Below, piece by piece: positions 2,485-29,777 of a DNA stretch of 64,000 bases; positions within the stretch are counted from its first letter, which is position 1, and each line of letters starts with the position of its first letter. The notes under the pieces are model-generated. The model was not told the DNA's origin, searched no databases, and saw only the letters and a list, made by a program, of their open reading frames with translations. Source of the DNA: Escherichia coli. Lineage in GTDB: Bacteria; Pseudomonadota; Gammaproteobacteria; Enterobacterales; Enterobacteriaceae. The stretch lies in NCBI RefSeq assembly GCF_003018255.1, contig NZ_CP027440.1; one strand, 5' to 3'. The position numbers and the translations under genes are program-made.

Positions 2485-3933
2485 ATGAAGTTTATCATTA
2501 AATTGTTCCCGGAAATCACCATCAAAAGCCAATCTGTGCGCTTGCGCTTTATAAAAATCCTTACCGGGAACATTCGTAACGTTTTAAAGCACTATGATGA
2601 GACGCTCGCTGTCGTCCGTCACTGGGATAACATCGAAGTTCGCGCAAAAGATGAAAACCAGCGTCTGGCTATTCGCGACGCCCTGACCCGTATTCCGGGT
2701 ATCCACCATATTCTCGAAGTCGAAGACGTGCCGTTTACCGACATGCACGATATTTTCGAGAAAGCGTTGGTTCAATATCGCGATCAGCTGGAAGGCAAAA
2801 CCTTCTGCGTACGCGTGAAGCGCCGCGGCAAACATGATTTTAGCTCGATTGATGTGGAACGTTACGTCGGCGGCGGTTTAAATCAGCATATTGAATCCGC
2901 GCGCGTGAAGCTGACCAATCCGGAAGTGACTGTCCATCTGGAAGTGGAAGACGATCGTCTGCTGCTGATTAAAGGCCGCTACGAAGGTATTGGCGGTTTC
3001 CCGATCGGCACCCAGGAAGATGTGTTGTCGCTCATTTCAGGTGGTTTCGACTCCGGCGTTTCCAGTTATATGTTGATGCGTCGCGGCTGCCGCGTGCATT
3101 ACTGCTTCTTTAACCTCGGCGGCGCGGCGCATGAAATTGGCGTGCGTCAGGTGGCGCATTATCTGTGGAACCGCTTTGGCAGCTCCCACCGCGTACGTTT
3201 TGTCGCTATTAATTTCGAACCGGTCGTCGGGGAAATTCTCGAGAAAATCGACGACGGTCAGATGGGCGTTATCCTCAAACGTATGATGGTGCGTGCCGCG
3301 TCCAAAGTGGCAGAACGTTACGGCGTACAGGCGCTGGTTACCGGTGAAGCGCTCGGCCAGGTGTCCAGCCAGACGCTGACCAACCTACGCCTGATTGATA
3401 ACGTCTCCGATACGCTGATCCTGCGTCCGCTGATCTCTTACGACAAAGAGCACATCATCAACCTGGCTCGCCAGATTGGCACCGAAGACTTTGCCCGCAC
3501 GATGCCGGAATATTGCGGCGTGATTTCCAAAAGCCCGACGGTGAAAGCGGTTAAATCGAAGATTGAAGCGGAAGAAGAGAAGTTCGACTTCAGCATTCTC
3601 GATAAAGTGGTGGAGGAAGCGAATAACGTTGATATCCGCGAAATCGCCCAGCAGACCGAGCAGGAAGTGGTGGAAGTGGAAACCGTCAATGGCTTCGGCC
3701 CGAACGACGTGATCCTCGATATCCGTTCTATCGATGAACAGGAAGATAAGCCACTGAAAGTCGAAGGGATTGATGTGGTTTCTCTGCCGTTCTATAAACT
3801 GAGCACCAAATTTGGCGATCTCGACCAGAGCAAAACCTGGCTGTTGTGGTGTGAGCGCGGGGTGATGAGCCGCCTGCAGGCGCTCTATCTGCGCGAGCAG
3901 GGCTTTAACAATGTGAAGGTGTATCGCCCGTAA
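2485..3933 (+). CDS. thiI: tRNA 4-thiouridine synthase ThiI
   Basis: Track ORF 482 aa; PP-loop SGGFDSGV and C-terminal rhodanese-like region; divergent from xseB. Confidence 0.95.
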
Positions 3934-3947
3934 TTTGTGGTTTTTAC

Positions 3948-3969
3948 GTCGCATCTGGTCAGATGCGAC
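3948..3969. repeat. REP-like palindrome (GTCGCATC-N6-GATGCGAC) between convergent thiI and yajL; possible bidirectional terminator
   Basis: Inverted repeat read directly from sequence immediately 3' of thiI stop. Confidence 0.5.
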
Positions 3970-3986
3970 GCTTACCGCATCCGACA

Positions 3987-5451
<1,465 letters not shown>

Positions 5452-5618: not shown

Positions 5619-6110
5619 ATGCCATCTTTCGATATTGTCTCTGAAGTTGATCTTCAGGAAGCACGTAACGCGGTCGATAACGCGAGCCGCGAAGTGGAGT
5701 CCCGTTTTGACTTCCGTAATGTTGAAGCCTCATTTGAGCTGAATGACGCCAGCAAAACCATCAAAGTGTTGAGCGAGTCCGACTTCCAGGTCAATCAGTT
5801 GCTGGATATTCTGCGTGCCAAGCTGCTGAAGCGCGGCATTGAAGGCAGTTCACTGGATGTACCGGAAAATATCGTTCATAGCGGTAAAACCTGGTTTGTG
5901 GAAGCGAAACTGAAACAGGGCATTGAGAGCGCGACTCAGAAGAAAATCGTCAAAATGATCAAAGACAGCAAACTGAAAGTGCAGGCGCAAATTCAGGGCG
6001 ATGAGATCCGCGTAACGGGTAAATCTCGTGATGATTTGCAGGCTGTCATGGCGATGGTACGTGGTGGCGATCTCGGTCAGCCGTTCCAGTTCAAAAACTT
6101 CCGCGATTAA
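5619..6110 (+). CDS. yajQ: nucleotide-binding protein YajQ (UPF0234)
   Basis: Track ORF 5451..6110 trimmed to ATG 5619 ([10 protein letters not shown]...), 163 aa, preceded by GGGAGAGG Shine-Dalgarno. Confidence 0.9.
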
Positions 6111-7750: not shown

Positions 7751-8641
7751 TTACCACACAGCAGCCAGCAGCGTATGCGAGTCCGGCACCATAAAATCAA
7801 CGGACATCATCACCGAGAGGGCAGTGATGGCGATGATAGAGAAGCCGAACAGCTTGCGCGCCCAGATTCTGTCATCAGCAACTTTATAACCGCGCAGAGC
7901 CATGCCTAACCACCAGACGCTCACCGCCGCGGCGACTACCAGATATTTATACCCAGCGTAACCGCCAAGAGAGAGCATCAGCGTGGCAACGGCAAAGGCG
8001 ATGATATACAGCGTGATGTGATTCTTCGCCACCGAAATGCCTTTTACCACTGGCAATACCGGAATGTTTGCCGCCTGGTAATCCTTAAAGCGGAAAATGG
8101 CGATGGCATAGGAGTGAGGCATCTGCCACAGACTGAAGATAGCAAGCAGGATCGCTGCGCCACTATCGAACTCGCCGGTTACTGCACAGTAGCCGATCAC
8201 CGGCGGCGCAGCGCCGGAGAGCGAACCAATCAATGTGCCGTAGACTGAGTGGCGTTTCATGTACAGGCTATAAACGCCGACATAAACCACAAAGCCCATC
8301 ACCCCCAGCCAGCAGGCCAGCGGATTCGCGCCAAACCACAGCAGCATAAAGCCAGCAATACCCAGCAAGGTGGCGTACACCAGCGAGACAGCAGGTGAGA
8401 TCAGGCCTTTAACCAGCACCCGATTCTTCGTCCTTTCCATCTTTCTGTCGATATCCCTGTCGATGTAGTTGTTAAACACACAACCCGACGCCACAACCAG
8501 TGACACCCCAACCAGCGTGTAGATAAACAGGGGATAATCAATGCTGCCCTTTGAGGCCAACAGGAATCCCCCAATCACCGAGATCAGGTTGCCAAAGATG
8601 ATGCCTGGTTTCGTTACTTGCAGGTATTGCTTAAACATCAT
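7751..8641 (-). CDS. cyoE: protoheme IX farnesyltransferase (heme O synthase)
   Basis: Track ORF 7751..8686 trimmed to [13 protein letters not shown] (296 aa); UbiA-family membrane prenyltransferase. Confidence 0.92.
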
Positions 8642-22850: not shown

Positions 22851-25296
<2,446 letters not shown>

Positions 25297-25337
25297 TGAC
25301 CTCTGTACTTATAACAACAACGTAAGGTTCTCGCGCT

Positions 25338-25736
25338 ATGCAAACACAAATCAAAGTTCGTGGATATCATCTCGATGTTTACCAGCACGTTAATAACGCC
25401 CGCTATCTGGAGTTTCTCGAAGAAGCCCGCTGGGATGGGTTGGAAAATAGCGACAGTTTTCAGTGGATGACGGCCCATAACATCGCTTTCGTGGTGGTGA
25501 ATATCAATATTAACTATCGTCGCCCGGCGGTATTAAGCGACTTGTTAACCATTACGAGCCAGTTACAGCAATTAAACGGTAAAAGCGGCATCTTAAGCCA
25601 GGTCATTACACTGGAGCCGGAAGGGCAGGTGGTAGCGGATGCGCTTATTACGTTTGTTTGTATTGATCTTAAAACGCAGAAAGCATTAGCTCTGGAAGGG
25701 GAATTGCGCGAAAAGCTCGAGCAGATGGTTAAGTAA
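25338..25736 (+). CDS. fadM: acyl-CoA thioesterase III
   Basis: Track ORF 132 aa, hotdog-fold thioesterase. Confidence 0.92.
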   Translation: MQTQIKVRGYHLDVYQHVNNARYLEFLEEARWDGLENSDSFQWMTAHNIAFVVVNININYRRPAVLSDLLTITSQLQQLNGKSGILSQVITLEPEGQVVADALITFVCIDLKTQKALALEGELREKLEQMVK

Positions 25737-25748
25737 ACGTTTTGTGGT

Positions 25749-25773
25749 GCCGGATGCTCAAGCCGCATCCGGC
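25749..25773. repeat. REP-like palindrome GCCGGATGC-N7-GCATCCGGC between convergent fadM and queC
   Basis: Perfect 9-bp inverted repeat read from sequence; likely bidirectional terminator. Confidence 0.6.
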
Positions 25774-25787
25774 GACACCCGGAATAA

Positions 25788-26483
25788 TTACTTCAACCCG
25801 GTTTTCTGCTTCATCGCTGCCATCACCGTCGGTTTATCGGCCAGATAATGATGCAAACCGTTGGCACGTAAATTACACGCCGCACAATGACCGCAACCGT
25901 CGCCTTTAATGCCGTTATAACAGGTCAGCGTTTCGTTACGGACTAAATCCAGCTTGCCGTAATAATCTGCCAGCGCCCAGGTTTCCGCTTTATCAATCCA
26001 CATCAGCGGCGTTTCAAAACGAATGTCTTTCGCCATACCCAGACTGACGGCATGGTTCAGTGCTTTCACAAACTCATCGCGGCAATCCGGGTAGCCGGAG
26101 AAATCCGTTTCGCAGACGCCGGTAATCACCGCTTCTGCTTTTACCTGATACGCATATATTGCCGCCAGTGTCAGGAACAAAATATTACGCCCAGGGACAA
26201 ACGTATTCGGGATGCCATCGGCTTCAGGTTCATAATCTGGCACTGGAATGCTGTCACGTGTCAGGCTGCTGACCGCCAGCTCGTTGAGCAGCGTTACATC
26301 AAGAACCTTATGCGCGCGTGCCCCCAGTTTCAGCGCCAGTTCGCGTGCCACGTCGATTTCCGCGCGATGTCGCTGACCGTAATCGAACGTCACGCAATGG
26401 ACTTCATCATATTGTTGTAATGCCTGCACCAGACAGGTGGTAGAATCCTGGCCTCCACTGAACACAACGACAGCACGTTTCAT
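25788..26483 (-). CDS. queC: 7-cyano-7-deazaguanine synthase
   Basis: Track ORF 231 aa; PP-loop VVFSGGQDS; C-terminal Zn-binding Cys cluster CGHCAAC. Confidence 0.95.
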
Positions 26484-26547
26484 AGATAATCCTGCTTGAA
26501 CAATAAAAGCGTTATGGTAACGCCTGCGATGAACCCGGACCAGCTAT

Positions 26548-28248
26548 TCATTGCGACGGCGCGGGAAGCCAGGCTTCGGTAAATTCAAACCAGCCTCGCG
26601 GTGTCAGTCGCACACCGTTCACGCCGGGAGGGGCGCTAATGCGATAGTGATAGTTGAACAGCGGCGTCAGCGTCGCATCTGCCATTAACTGGCTAAAAAC
26701 CGCTTTCAGGGCATTAAATCGGTTTTCCTCATCAGGCATTACTTGCACCGCGTCCAGTGTCGATTGCAAATGTGCATATGCTGGAGCGTCGAAAACATGT
26801 GGCCATAGTGGATCGCAACGCAGCCATTGCTCCAGGGTATATTCCGGTGCTTCGCCAATTAATCTGTCGCCCATCATGAGGTCTGCGTGTGCCAGTAGGG
26901 TCGTGTCGTCCCAGTTTTTTGCGTTATGAAAAATAATTGTGAGTTCACAGCCTTCCGCTGCCAGTGTCGCCTGTAGACGTTCTGCCATGGTATGAAGTTC
27001 TATCGGTAGGTGATAAACCAGCGTCAAGGTTTTCGGTAGTTTGACCTCATCCGGTACTTGCCATTGCGGAATAGTCCAGCCTGGCAGTAATGCATGACTG
27101 GCGGTGATCAGGTTTTCTCCGACTTCTAACGTTTGTAATAAACCGGATTGATGAATAATGGAAATCACTTTTCGCGCCTGCCAGAGGGACAGTCGGGGAC
27201 TTTTGCGCAACGTTAAATAGCAAAAACCTAAACTGATGCCACTACTGACCTGGCTGACCCGTTGCAGCTCCTCCGGTTTGCCGATGGTGATTTGCACGGG
27301 ATGCCGACAACTGGTTCCCAAATCTTTTTCGAAAAGCGGCGGAGTTATCCAGTACTCAACCGCTTTAAGCAGCGGATGACGTAAATGGTAATAATCATGG
27401 CTTTCCAGGCGCACCAGCTCCGCTGTGAATTGTGTTAAGCGAAAAGGACCCGTGCCGATCAGTGGGAATTGCGGATGCGCCAGATGGCTGCAATAGCTCG
27501 CCAGTCGGTGCGCAAGCCAGTAATCGGGGCGATGTAAAAAGAAGGTCAGACACTGCGGATGGGTGACTTCAATACGCTTCACGCTAATAAATAATTGATC
27601 CAGTGCTGGCAGTTGTAACAGCAGCAATAATCGCTGGTGTAAGTGTGAGGCTTTTACTGCATCGCCGTTATGCCAGTGTAGGGTTGAACGAAGATAAAAG
27701 TCCCAGCGTAACCCGTCAGTAGAGGTTTCCCAGTGATGTGCTAAATCGCCAATCGGGCGCTGAGTATTATTATCGAAGCGGGTCAGGCCGGAAAATATCT
27801 GCCCGGCCAGATGCTGCTCGGCACGGCCGGGCAAAAAGCCCGGTTGTAGCGGTTCGAGCGGGCGATAGTAGGGAATACGCAACGTGGGCGTATCGTTTTG
27901 CCATTGTCCGCCCATAAACGGCTGTAACAGAGTGCGCAGCTCACCTGGGGCCAGTTGCGCCAGCTCCAGCACATCTTGCTGCTTTCCGGTTTCCAGCGCC
28001 TGTTCCATCATCGCATTGCGTAGCGATTCTGGCGTGACCAGAAAGCGTAGTTGCCCGCGTTTTCCGCGTCCTGACTGCGCCTGCCACTCCAGCCATCCCG
28101 CCTCCTGTGCCTGGCGTAACAGCGTACGAACATGGCGTTCGCTGCAAAAACAGCGTTCGGCCAGTTCGCTGACGGTGACGGTTTGCGGCTTTCCGGCGGA
28201 AGGTTGCCACAGACGTTGATACTGGTTAAGACGGTTGAGCAGTCGCAT
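26548..28248 (-). CDS. ybaE: uncharacterized solute-binding-protein-like protein YbaE
   Basis: Track ORF 26548..28263 trimmed to MRLLNRLNQYQRLW (566 aa, from recalled protein length); function not known to me. Confidence 0.85.
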   Translation of the reverse strand: MRLLNRLNQYQRLWQPSAGKPQTVTVSELAERCFCSERHVRTLLRQAQEAGWLEWQAQSGRGKRGQLRFLVTPESLRNAMMEQALETGKQQDVLELAQLAPGELRTLLQPFMGGQWQNDTPTLRIPYYRPLEPLQPGFLPGRAEQHLAGQIFSGLTRFDNNTQRPIGDLAHHWETSTDGLRWDFYLRSTLHWHNGDAVKASHLHQRLLLLLQLPALDQLFISVKRIEVTHPQCLTFFLHRPDYWLAHRLASYCSHLAHPQFPLIGTGPFRLTQFTAELVRLESHDYYHLRHPLLKAVEYWITPPLFEKDLGTSCRHPVQITIGKPEELQRVSQVSSGISLGFCYLTLRKSPRLSLWQARKVISIIHQSGLLQTLEVGENLITASHALLPGWTIPQWQVPDEVKLPKTLTLVYHLPIELHTMAERLQATLAAEGCELTIIFHNAKNWDDTTLLAHADLMMGDRLIGEAPEYTLEQWLRCDPLWPHVFDAPAYAHLQSTLDAVQVMPDEENRFNALKAVFSQLMADATLTPLFNYHYRISAPPGVNGVRLTPRGWFEFTEAWLPAPSQ

Positions 28249-28347
28249 ATAAACCCGGAACAATATTATTTAACTATTCACTATTACTTCCGTATATATC
28301 AGGTGATACTCAATCACCATTAACCGTGTCACAGAGTGGAGAAAGAA

Positions 28348-29166
28348 ATGGCTCGTCTGGCAGCATTTGATATGGATGGCACTTTATTGATGCCTGACCA
28401 TCATTTAGGTGAGAAAACCCTCTCTACTTTGGCGCGACTGCGTGAACGCGACATTACCCTCACTTTTGCCACTGGGCGTCATGCGCTGGAGATGCAGCAT
28501 ATTCTCGGGGCGCTATCGCTGGATGCATATTTGATTACCGGCAACGGAACGCGCGTGCATTCTCTGGAAGGTGAACTTTTACATCGTGATGATTTACCTG
28601 CGGATGTCGCGGAGCTGGTGCTGTATCAGCAGTGGGATACCCGAGCCAGCATGCATATCTTCAATGACGACGGTTGGTTTACCGGGAAAGAGATCCCTGC
28701 GTTGTTGCAGGCATTTGTCTATAGTGGTTTTCGTTATCAGATAATCGATGTCAAAAAAATGCCACTCGGCAGCGTCACCAAGATCTGCTTCTGTGGCGAT
28801 CACGACGATCTTACACGCTTGCAGATCCAGCTATACGAAGCATTAGGCGAGCGTGCACATTTGTGTTTTTCCGCCACGGATTGCCTCGAAGTGCTGCCGG
28901 TGGGCTGCAATAAAGGCGCTGCATTGACGGTGCTGACCCAACATTTAGGTTTATCGTTGCGCGATTGCATGGCCTTTGGTGATGCGATGAACGATCGCGA
29001 AATGTTAGGCAACGTCGGTAGCGGATTTATTATGGGCAATGCGATGCCGCAATTGCGCGCGGAGCTCCCGCATTTACCGGTGATTGGACATTGCCGAAAT
29101 CAGGCTGTCTCTCACTATTTGACGCACTGGCTGGACTATCCACATCTACCTTATTCCCCCGAATAA
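28348..29166 (+). CDS. cof: HAD-superfamily HMP-PP phosphatase Cof
   Basis: Track ORF 28336..29166 trimmed to [14 protein letters not shown] (HAD motif I DMDGT). Confidence 0.92.
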
Positions 29167-29318
29167 CGAGATCCCTTCCAGCACCGGGCAATTGCCCGGT
29201 TTTTTTTGCGTTGAATTTGTCATTTTGTGCCGTGGTGTTTAAACCGCACAGAATAAATTGTCGCGATTTCACCTTTAAAATAGAATTAAAAGAGAAAAAA
29301 ATTCTCTGTGGAAGGGCT

Positions 29319-29777
29319 ATGTTAGATAAAATTGACCGTAAGCTGCTGGCCTTACTACAGCAGGATTGTACCCTCTCTTTGCAGGCACTGGCTGAAGCCG
29401 TTAATCTGACAACCACCCCGTGCTGGAAGCGTCTGAAACGGCTGGAGGACGACGGTATTCTTATCGGCAAAGTCGCCCTGCTGGATCCGGAAAAAATAGG
29501 CCTCGGCCTGACCGCCTTTGTGCTGATAAAAACGCAACATCACAGCAGCGAATGGTATTGCCGCTTTGTCACGGTGGTTACCGAAATGCCAGAAGTGCTG
29601 GGGTTCTGGCGCATGGCCGGTGAATACGATTATCTGATGCGCGTCCAGGTTGCCGACATGAAACGCTACGACGAGTTTTATAAGCGTTTGGTAAACAGCG
29701 TGCCGGGGCTGTCGGACGTCACTTCCAGCTTCGCGATGGAACAGATTAAATACACCACTTCTTTACCCATCGAATAA
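29319..29777 (+). CDS. decR: Lrp/AsnC-family transcriptional regulator DecR (YbaO)
   Basis: Track ORF 29091..29777 trimmed to [16 protein letters not shown] (152 aa). Confidence 0.9.

Follow-up and report, generated by a model that had tools for sequence, protein, structure and literature searches.

YbaE of Escherichia coli is a cytoplasmic SgrR paralogue probably paired with the divergent phosphatase gene cof

Transcription factors of the LacI/GalR and LysR families join a DNA-binding domain to a ligand-binding fold of the venus-flytrap type, an arrangement also found in the YbaE protein of Escherichia coli. However, the LacI/GalR and LysR proteins use the smaller class I and class II folds together with a different helix-turn-helix, whereas YbaE and SgrR contain the large three-lobed family-5 fold. 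SgrR is the regulator of glucose-phosphate stress and activates the divergently transcribed small RNA gene sgrS. SgrS stabilises the yigL mRNA, which originates from an unlinked locus, and YigL is a sugar-phosphate phosphatase induced under phosphosugar stress. SgrR also regulates the distant genes setA and alaC, and a highly conserved regulatory sequence adjoining sgrR has been described (Horler and Vanderpool). Both RefSeq and Horler and Vanderpool (2009) list YbaE as an SgrR homologue, the latter within clade 2 and with its function given as not known, so that the family and the architecture of YbaE are already public and not new. A previous sequence-only reading of the locus had stated that no function could be assigned to ybaE, which holds as far as experiments are concerned, while public annotation does provide the SgrR-family class.

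The window, a stretch of DNA of 64,000 nucleotides, contains ybaE in a segment that could be identified as E. coli by a match in 5,424 of 5,426 complete genomes, and RefSeq annotates ybaE, queC, cof, and fadM at this locus. The ybaE coding sequence occupies 26548..28248 on the minus strand, as supported by the open reading frame, Pfam, end-to-end alignments with the SgrR model and with SgrR, the RefSeq name, and dN/dS. The open reading frame itself extends over 26548..28263, and the 566-residue product starts from the ATG at 28248, a length shared by 10,693 database members. One contig only encodes an 818-residue YbaE-QueC fusion protein, whose junction reads as read-through over a lost stop codon and which probably represents an artefact or a rare mutant. 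The downstream neighbour queC (25788..26483, minus strand), coding for 7-cyano-7-deazaguanine synthase, was assigned by open reading frame, Pfam, and RefSeq as well as by a QueC equivalog score of 490.7 against a cutoff of 378. The spacer between the two genes (26484..26547, minus strand) is exactly 64 bp long by the coordinates of the open reading frames. The description of ybaE as a 566-residue gene located directly upstream of queC on the same strand and ending 64 bp before it was thus accurate. On the other side of ybaE, the divergently oriented cof (28348..29166, plus strand; open reading frame, Pfam, RefSeq) encodes the Cof-type HAD-IIB phosphatase acting on HMP-PP, and it is the target that we propose for YbaE.

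The domain search suggested by the sequence-only reading returned SgrR_N and SBP_bac_5 as the only Pfam domains of YbaE, and no queuosine-related domain. The N-terminal winged-helix DNA-binding domain SgrR_N (PF12793) covers residues 7-119 (27892..28230, minus strand) with an E-value of 3.1e-39 and a score of 134.2 bits (cutoff 24). The AlphaFold2 model of the whole protein is of moderate confidence only (pLDDT 75), and it builds residues 7-119 from helices and a strand hairpin with pLDDT values of 76-88. The remaining residues from approximately 121 to 561 (26566..27888, minus strand) adopt the cluster-C (family 5) solute-binding-protein fold and form the C-terminal sensor domain, within which PF00496 (SBP_bac_5) spans residues 165-303 (62.3 bits, cutoff 32.4). 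The top structural matches found by Foldseek were NikA, DppA, CntA, and MppA, with E-values between 1e-19 and 2.5e-23 over about 500-530 columns and TM-scores of 0.52-0.68. The resemblance to a solute-binding-protein fold, which had been pointed out from the sequence, was therefore correct for residues ~120-566, but the DNA-binding domain at residues 7-119 had been missed. YbaE shares with NikA, DppA, OppA, MppA, and CntA the fold of its C-terminal ~440 residues and the family-5 signature region. Unlike these proteins, to which it is 13-18% identical, YbaE has no signal peptide, bears an additional DNA-binding domain, and is not accompanied by transporter genes.

The similarity to SgrR extends over the entire protein. 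Residues 8-564 of YbaE aligned with positions 8-550 of the SgrR model (552 positions), and BLASTP against SgrR of E. coli K-12 gave 28% identity over YbaE residues 9-565 with an E-value of 4e-55. The two proteins thus have in common their two-domain architecture, their length, whole-protein colinearity, and a cytoplasmic location. The SgrR equivalog model NF010149 scored YbaE with 230.3 bits, below its cutoff of 476, and YbaE is not an SgrR orthologue; its distribution is also narrower than that of SgrR, and it is missing from the Morganellaceae examined. Equivalog models of transporter solute-binding proteins reached only 16-28 bits against cutoffs of 393-1005, and no permease or ATPase genes lie beside ybaE, its neighbours being cof and queC; YbaE is not a transporter component. 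The signal-peptide prediction proposed earlier turned up no export signal: a sequence-based test found neither a hydrophobic N-terminal stretch nor a lipobox or twin-arginine motif, and the maximum hydropathy within the first 56 residues was 0.73. The SgrR_N domain and the missing signal peptide together identify YbaE, as far as its sequence tells, as a full-length cytoplasmic transcription-factor paralogue of SgrR. The homologues that come next in similarity (P0123, P0124, P0125, P0127, P0130, and P0137) were rejected as YbaE or SgrR orthologues because they belong to other paralogue clades and lie in unrelated contexts. A sequence search for solved structures of SgrR-family members found none.

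The ybaE locus also resembles the sgrR locus in its layout. In both cases, the regulator gene is divergent from its target, a likely one for ybaE, across a short spacer with a conserved sequence beside the start codon of the regulator. The divergent gene next to ybaE, however, is the phosphatase gene cof at a distance of 99 bp rather than the small RNA and small-peptide gene sgrS/sgrT. The cof-ybaE spacer (28249..28347) contains a conserved regulatory block. In an alignment of 60 distinct sequences comprising the spacer and 6 nt of each flanking gene, 45 of the 111 columns were at least 95% identical. Conservation of the block extends from E. coli as far as Yersinia and Edwardsiella, and dS is saturated among the aligned genera. 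Within E. coli, the spacer is more conserved than its flanks.

An inverted repeat CGGAA-N27-TTCCG was located at 28256..28292, which we consider a putative YbaE operator. Of 100 independent metagenome loci, all of them bordered by cof, by ybaE, or by the two together, 98 have retained this repeat, a motif defined after the fact from short half-sites. The half of the block nearer to cof contains the near-invariant stretch TATTCACTATTACTTCCGTATAT (28275..28297, plus strand), and the core of the conserved block reads TATTCACTATTAC. In 79 of 80 loci, the block lies 49-60 nt from the cof ATG, whereas its distance from the ybaE ATG varies between 24 and 306 nt, and the metagenome set shows the same pattern of a fixed cof-block and a variable ybaE-block distance. 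Downstream of the proximal half-site by 12 nt, the hexamer GATACT (28305..28310, plus strand) would act as the -10 element of cof and predicts a transcription start site for this gene near 28317. Its reverse complement AGTAT is invariant in the alignment, and variants such as AATAGT keep A2, T3, A4, and T6. No good -35 element for the predicted cof promoter was found in the spacer; the inverted repeat covers roughly positions -61 to -25 of this promoter.

A similar geometry is found at the promoter controlled by SgrR. The repeat adjoining sgrR is GGGAA-N28-TTCCC, and at sgrS the half-site TTCCC is followed after 12 nt by ATAATT ahead of the annotated +1, the same spacing as at cof, a comparison that rests on the annotated +1 and on our present reading of the sequence. 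Both systems thus conform to [C/G]GGAA-N27/28-TTCC[G/C], and in each the -10 element of the target follows the proximal half-site after 12 nt. Loci of other paralogues carry GGAA-N26-28-TTCC repeats, and AGGAAC-N24-GTTCCT lies upstream of the paralogue P0124.

Gene presence adds to this picture. Since ybaE, cof, and queC adjoin one another in every orthologue locus, synteny alone cannot tell cof from queC as the partner of ybaE within those families. Proteus and Providencia have kept the order decR-queC-fadM-ybaV-ppiD, and both cof and ybaE are missing there. This joint absence was seen in two Morganellaceae genomes only. In the scan of the genome collection, the best 80 loci were all from Enterobacteriaceae, and the genomes without ybaE came from chromosomes mislabelled in the plasmid collection. 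The comparative evidence points to cof, not queC, as the gene to which ybaE is tied.

From the observed domain architecture, cytoplasmic location, paralogy, synteny, and motifs with their spacing, we infer that YbaE is probably a one-component factor of the SgrR family that is paired with cof and acts through the inverted repeat in the spacer. The N-terminal winged helix would bind DNA, and the family-5 periplasmic-binding-protein fold would have been recruited as an intracellular ligand sensor, so that ybaE and the divergent phosphatase gene would constitute a two-gene module. YbaE would bind CGGAA-N27-TTCCG in the 99-bp spacer, at a cof promoter with a -10 but no recognisable -35 element. 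A metabolite sensed by YbaE would then lead to the activation of cof and probably also to autoregulation. By analogy, the ligand is probably phosphorylated and could be a sugar phosphate or a pyrimidine of the HMP-PP type.

In the SgrR-SgrS-YigL circuit, too, an SgrR-family regulator is coupled with a phosphatase of the Cof-type HAD-IIB class. YigL shares 39% identity with Cof, and YigL records are the best Cof matches annotated as E. coli proteins. The coupling between SgrR and YigL is indirect and involves unlinked loci, whereas YbaE would exert direct transcriptional control over an adjoining gene. We put forward, as a tentative extension that we would not yet favour, that YbaE and Cof could form a second circuit paralogous to SgrR/SgrS/YigL. 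In such a circuit, YbaE would respond to a toxic phosphorylated metabolite, for instance a sugar phosphate or a pyrimidine analogue of the HMP-PP type, and would directly activate cof via a family-wide GGAA-N26-28-TTCC operator spanning about three helical turns.

It is also conceivable, if rather improbable, that YbaE is a regulator with targets elsewhere and that the block represents core promoter sequence, a binding site for a different factor, or an RNA acting in cis. An invariant sequence does not reveal the protein that binds it and might be made up of promoter and UP-element sequence, and SgrR, too, acts on the distant setA and alaC. Moreover, the expression of ybaE depends indirectly on cAMP-CRP, which implies other regulators at or near the spacer; a CRP site at the TGTGA motif of the spacer was rejected owing to its wrong spacing and a negative published EMSA. 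A blastn search for further operator copies in E. coli returned only the locus itself, but degenerate copies elsewhere would be beyond the reach of blastn. Elsewhere in the window, the pattern matched just once, within ybaV at 24988-25025, and this match was discarded as no more than expected by chance. Against targets elsewhere and another origin of the block stand the geometry shared with the SgrR-controlled sgrS promoter, the related repeats upstream of other family members, the occurrence of the block only together with ybaE, cof, or both, and the gain and loss of cof and ybaE as a pair. An RNA element is unlikely, as RNAalifold predicted no more than a stem of 5 bp closing a loop of 27 nt (-2.5 to -3.8 kcal/mol) and the block had no Rfam match. 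We thus retain binding of YbaE at the inverted repeat as the preferred explanation of the block.

The sequence-only reading had instead considered co-transcription of ybaE with queC and, on this ground, a functional link. YbaE would then sense a 7-deazaguanine or another metabolite of the queuosine pathway, or otherwise serve queuosine synthesis, which we regard as very unlikely. The two genes do share a strand across a gap of 64 bp, and in each of the 84 orthologue loci ybaE is followed by queC, as it is in 63 of the 64 metagenome loci with room for this gene. However, this conserved adjacency is seen only inside a frozen block extending from mdlA to lon and is absent in Proteus and Providencia. 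The gap ranges from 26 to 421 nt among 85 loci and amounts to 280 nt in Yersinia. The Morganellaceae keep queC in place without ybaE, the paralogue clades are never found near queC, and YbaE, unlike the widespread QueC, occurs in only part of the Enterobacterales. Neither a queuosine-related domain in YbaE nor a riboswitch supports the connection. On the comparative evidence, ybaE owes its place ahead of queC to inherited synteny.

The conserved -10-like hexamer TACCAT (26514..26519, minus strand), located 30 nt upstream of the queC ATG, may serve as the -10 of a putative queC promoter. The pattern G-N-TA[C/A]CAT is invariant across 71 distinct Enterobacteriaceae spacers, related -10-like forms occur in Edwardsiella, Hafnia, Rahnella, Yersinia, and Serratia, and Providencia has a similar element upstream of queC despite lacking ybaE. 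Just past the ybaE stop codon lies the motif AGCTGG (26540..26545, minus strand), whose conservation in alignment A2 is 90% or more. It shares bases with CTGGTC, a weak -35-like sequence that precedes TACCAT by 18 bp, and might be part of the same promoter. Overlapping the -10-like element, a weak terminator-like hairpin of 8 pairs, three of them G-C, is followed by a T-rich run (26507..26525, minus strand). Across the alignment, 81% of the cells in this hairpin are paired, yet covariation is weak, since the observed value was also attained in 8-11 of 500 shuffles. The fold of 26470-26560 is no better than that of shuffles (z 0.26), and read-through is plausible with a hairpin this weak in a surrounding fold at chance level. 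Searching 25000-29500 against Rfam gave no match, in the spacer or elsewhere, neither a riboswitch (preQ1 included) nor an sgrS-like RNA. A structured RNA in the 64-bp spacer was rejected on account of these results, and only the weak terminator-like feature was kept. Hafnia, by contrast with E. coli, has a strong terminator-like hairpin of 10 bp with a T-run between the two genes. Published transcript evidence for a ybaE-queC operon or a queC transcription start site was sought, and none was found in the literature available. Most likely, queC is transcribed from a promoter of its own within the 64-bp spacer, and some read-through from ybaE may occur. Given the variable gap, the -10-like element, the Hafnia hairpin, the Morganellaceae, and the frozen synteny, the suggested functional link through co-transcription is unsupported.

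Could YbaE simply be a copy of SgrR that has lost its function and is decaying? Its sequence changes faster than those of its neighbours, with 46-50% identity in Yersiniaceae and Hafniaceae compared with 80-83% for QueC and a dN/dS 3-4 times that of queC. Truncated forms occur as well, namely a 444-residue cluster without the DNA-binding domain and shortened matches in loci L024 and L086, and YbaE is without an established phenotype. However, the dN/dS values of 0.04-0.11 indicate purifying selection, 17 orthologues drawn from three families share 125 invariant residues, and the open reading frame is intact and constant in length in thousands of genomes. The regulatory sequence upstream of ybaE has also been kept, and we judge decay to be highly improbable.

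A periplasmic solute-binding or regulatory role, for example as a peptide-binding component, is next to untenable: the family-5 fold, older database names that are still in use, for instance 'oligopeptide ABC transporter substrate-binding protein', and a recent paper that terms YbaE periplasmic and reports resistance to the lacritin peptide N-104 in a ybaE knockout would agree with it, but the N-terminus carries a winged-helix DNA-binding domain in place of any of the export signals sought, transporter equivalog scores are far below their cutoffs, and no permease or ATPase genes adjoin.

As ybaE is a catalogued gene of a public family and its tie to queuosine is unsupported, the initial observation by itself matters little. 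The analysis corrects the periplasmic description of YbaE in the recent literature, and it leaves an ordinary finding with a testable lead, consisting of a candidate operator, cof as a candidate target, and the parallel to the phosphosugar-stress response of SgrR and YigL. If true, ybaE and cof would represent a small regulatory module for the detoxification of a thiamine precursor or a phospho-metabolite. The repeat would then provide the first general DNA-recognition rule for the SgrR family, and ybaE of E. coli would gain a function.

The ORF at 26548..28263 on the minus strand encodes, from the ATG at 28248, the 566-residue YbaE, and queC (25788..26483, minus strand) follows after a spacer of exactly 64 bp (26484..26547), so that every particular of position, length, strand and distance in the sequence-only reading was correct. 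RefSeq labels the genes here as ybaE ('SgrR family transcriptional regulator'), queC, cof and fadM. The segment is E. coli because a 2.7-kb query around ybaE matched 5,424 of 5,426 complete E. coli genomes. Over these 2.7 kb (window 25700-28400), identity of at least 99% was found in only 16 of the 5,424 genomes, most being at 95-99%, which points to an uncommon E. coli lineage as the source of the window.

Pfam placed an SgrR_N winged-helix DNA-binding domain at residues 7-119 of YbaE (E 3e-39) and SBP_bac_5 at residues 165-303, both above threshold. The NCBIfam SgrR equivalog aligned with YbaE end to end (8-564 versus 8-550 of 552) at 230 bits, below its cutoff of 476, and transporter binding-protein models scored 16-28 bits against cutoffs of 393-1005. 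YbaE is 28% identical to K-12 SgrR over its full length (BLASTP, E 4e-55); it is a paralogue rather than SgrR proper. An AlphaFold2 model built from 17 orthologues (pLDDT 75, pTM 0.67) consists of a helical N-terminal domain, a disordered linker (104-120) and a large alpha/beta body, which Foldseek matched to NikA, DppA, CntA and MppA (E down to 2.5e-23, identity 13-18%); a sequence search of the PDB found no SgrR-family structure. The suspected solute-binding-protein-like fold was thus borne out by both domain search and structure prediction. A sequence-based check of the N-terminus found no hydrophobic segment, lipobox or twin-arginine motif, and hence no sign of a signal peptide. Given the DNA-binding domain, the binding-protein fold and the missing export signal, YbaE is predicted to be a cytoplasmic regulator using a periplasmic-binding-protein fold as sensor. 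A 2025 paper, reporting that a ybaE knockout is resistant to a lacritin peptide, calls YbaE periplasmic, which the sequence evidence contradicts.

The gene, its family and its architecture were already known: Horler & Vanderpool (2009) assigned YbaE to 'clade 2' of SgrR homologues, of unknown function, and suggested that such homologues regulate their divergent gene. The view that YbaE has no assignable function therefore holds for the literature, but its family and architecture were already public. Published data also indicate that ybaE expression goes up when carbon is limiting; the response depends on cAMP-CRP, though apparently indirectly. The gene is under purifying selection, with a dN/dS of 0.04-0.11 versus 0.016-0.027 for queC, and 125 residues are invariant among orthologues from three families. 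Some strains carry a YbaE that is truncated or lacks the DNA-binding domain (protein cluster P0023, 444 aa, 305 member sequences; loci L024 6001-7603 and L086 6001-7320), among them E. coli SCPM-O-B-8794 and Citrobacter koseri NCTC10786, which suggests occasional loss of function. One contig encodes an in-frame YbaE-QueC fusion (P0002, 818 aa), with the stop codon lost and translation continuing across the spacer; this is likely an artefact of sequencing or a rare mutant.

Does the proximity of queC reflect a functional link, as had been proposed along with co-transcription? YbaE orthologues (at least 45% identity) occur in three families, Enterobacteriaceae, Hafniaceae (Hafnia, Obesumbacterium, Edwardsiella) and Yersiniaceae (Yersinia, Serratia, Rahnella, Rouxiella). 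All 84 of 84 orthologue loci share one gene order: mdlA-decR-(PALP gene)-cof, divergent from ybaE, which is followed by queC and by the convergent fadM-ybaV-ppiD-hupB-lon. Because the adjacency is universal within a frozen block, it says nothing specific about function. Providencia and Proteus chromosomes mislabelled as plasmids in PLSDB gave the decisive comparison: in Providencia alcalifaciens (annotated) and Proteus mirabilis, the order is mdlB-mdlA-decR, divergent from queC, then the convergent fadM-ybaV-ppiD-hupB-lon, so that queC sits in the same block without ybaE and without cof. None of the next-closest YbaE homologues (28-39% identity) lies beside queC; their neighbours are GFO/IDH oxidoreductases, a PTS EIICB gene, fimbrial operons or a type VI secretion cluster. 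The PLSDB records concerned (NZ_OL790811.1, NZ_OL790812.1, NZ_AP026896.1, NZ_CP134663.1 and others) are 4-5 Mb 'plasmids' that represent whole chromosomes, a data-quality trap for plasmid statistics. The PALP gene, encoding a PLP-dependent enzyme of ~346-350 aa, lies between cof and decR, divergent from decR, in Klebsiella, Hafnia, Serratia, Yersinia and Rahnella (~3760-5011 in loci L001 and L087-L090); Escherichia lacks it, with a cof-decR gap of only about 150 bp (window 29167-29315).

The ybaE-queC gap is unconstrained in length, ranging over 26-421 nt among 85 loci (Edwardsiella 48 nt, Hafnia 101, Serratia 115, Rahnella 121, Yersinia 280). Across 71 distinct Enterobacteriaceae spacers, mean column identity was 54%, with AGCTGG conserved just 3' of the ybaE stop and G-N-TA[C/A]CAT invariant about 30 nt upstream of the queC ATG. 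The hexamer TA[C/A]CAT (26514-26519; invariant T1, A2, A5 and T6) matches the pattern of a sigma-70 -10 element and is a putative queC promoter element; kindred hexamers occur in the longer spacers of the other families, and the Providencia region upstream of queC, lacking ybaE, still has GCTAACATAG. A terminator scan found a weak terminator-like hairpin overlapping it (26507-26525; 81% of cells paired, the observed covariation reached by 8-11 of 500 shuffles), the wider stretch 26470-26560 having a folding z of 0.26. Between the two genes, Hafnia carries a 10-bp hairpin with 6 G-C pairs and a T-run after it, and no Rfam family, including preQ1 riboswitches, matched at the locus. With a putative promoter of its own for queC, terminator-like hairpins and linkage only among relatives, the proposed functional link is not supported, and the connection is most likely synteny without function. 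In Escherichia only, 26533-26545 upstream of queC reads GGTCCGGGTTCAT, sharing 11 of 13 positions with TGTTCCGGGTTTAT (28249-28261), the distal operator half-site upstream of ybaE; a partner half-site at the appropriate distance is missing, and the likeness is probably fortuitous or lineage-specific. In Yersinia, the 280-nt spacer holds four copies of GGCATAGC (L089, about 7790-7830).

The other side of ybaE is strongly conserved. The 99-bp cof-ybaE spacer (28249-28347) holds a block, near-invariant from E. coli through Yersinia, Serratia and Edwardsiella, that reads AGTAT-N5-TG-N2-ATATACGGAA[G/C]TAATAGTGAA[T/C]A...TTGTTCCGGGTTT in the ybaE sense. An alignment of 60 distinct sequences, comprising the spacer and 6 nt of either flanking gene, has 45 of its 111 columns at 95% identity or more, across genera whose synonymous sites are saturated (dS about 2 or more). 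Identity of 99% or more is seen for the spacer in 4,621 of 5,378 E. coli records, but over the surrounding 2.7 kb in only 16. The block keeps its place relative to cof and not relative to ybaE: it lies 49-60 nt from the cof ATG in 79 of 80 loci and 24-306 nt from the ybaE ATG, the latter distance varying because insertions fall on the ybaE side. Insertions of ~100-300 bp, possibly small repeat elements, recur between block and ybaE ATG (expanded spacers at L011, 374 bp; L059, 382 bp; L057, L014 and L023) or between the -10-like motif and queC (L012 and L061, 189 bp), and never between block and cof among the loci compared. An independent scan of metagenome contigs for the block core returned 120 loci, of which 100 were true, each flanked by cof, ybaE or both, and 20 were unrelated matches of the degenerate pattern. 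The cof distance was 46-58 nt in 90 of 92, and the ybaE distance 23-635 nt.

Within the block, the inverted repeat CGGAA-N27-TTCCG (28256-28292), kept in 98 of the 100 true metagenome loci, is a putative operator. Folded as RNA, the repeat would give no more than a 5-bp stem around a 27-nt loop (-2.5 to -3.8 kcal/mol), and a protein-binding DNA site appears the better reading than an RNA element. In the cof sense, the proximal half-site is followed after 12 nt by GATACT, whose reverse complement is invariant; variants such as AATAGT retain A2, T3, A4 and T6. No recognisable -35 lies upstream of GATACT in the spacer, and the predicted cof promoter has the profile of an activator-dependent one. 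The ybaV coding sequence holds another exact match to CGGAA-N25-29-TTCCG (24988-25025), which was rejected as an operator, being at chance level (8 of 100 shuffles give at least 2 matches). In Hafnia, the cof 5' region contains TTTTTGTGACGAATCA in three tandem copies (L087, about 5870-5920).

A similar arrangement is found at sgrR. The K-12 sgrR-sgrS spacer contains GGGAA-N28-TTCCC, against CGGAA-N27-TTCCG here; the proximal TTCCC is followed after 12 nt by ATAATT and, 6 nt on, by the annotated +1 of sgrS, as the cof half-site is followed after 12 nt by GATACT. The distal half-site adjoins the start of sgrR, GTTCCCCTTTTATG, with GTTCCGGGTTTATATG as its ybaE counterpart, and Horler & Vanderpool independently describe strong conservation of the DNA adjoining sgrR and a requirement for it in sgrS activation. 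In a third clade, AGGAAC-N24-GTTCCTGTTT precedes the P0124 gene; counted alike, this amounts to GGAA-N26-TTCC. Short half-sites and a post hoc motif definition make an operator architecture common to SgrR-family loci a lead rather than a result. Both E. coli paralogues adjoin thiamine-related genes, sroA (TPP riboswitch) and thiBPQ downstream of sgrR (K-12 sgrR-sgrS spacer, L093 1801-1867) and cof (HMP-PP phosphatase) divergent from ybaE (28249-28347), which may be coincidence. Other SgrR-family clades (L091, L092/L214, L215) lie by chaperone-usher fimbrial operons, one with a tandem pair of such regulators, or a type VI secretion cluster, so the family would regulate beyond sugar metabolism; L091 has several CCGGAA/TTCCGG motifs in a 280-nt upstream region.

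Cof carries the annotation HMP-PP phosphatase (Cof-type HAD-IIB class), and its best non-Cof match among E. coli-annotated records is YigL (39% identity), the sugar-phosphate phosphatase whose mRNA is activated by SgrS in the SgrR response. Searching a complete P. mirabilis chromosome with Cof gives the YigL orthologue as top match (63% to E. coli YigL, 39% to Cof), and with YbaE a 29% partial one; this genome thus lacks both genes, consistent with cof and ybaE forming a two-gene module that is acquired or lost together.

Building on the observed architecture, location, paralogy, synteny, and motif conservation and spacing, we infer that the winged-helix domain of YbaE would bind the operator in the cof-ybaE spacer, probably in dimeric form across some three helical turns, and that its binding-protein-like domain would sense a cytoplasmic metabolite. 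YbaE would then activate cof and probably modulate its own expression. The searchable literature gave no description of the proposed cof connection or the candidate operator. YbaE is thus an ordinary annotated regulator, to which the candidate operator and cof attach a useful and directly testable hypothesis.
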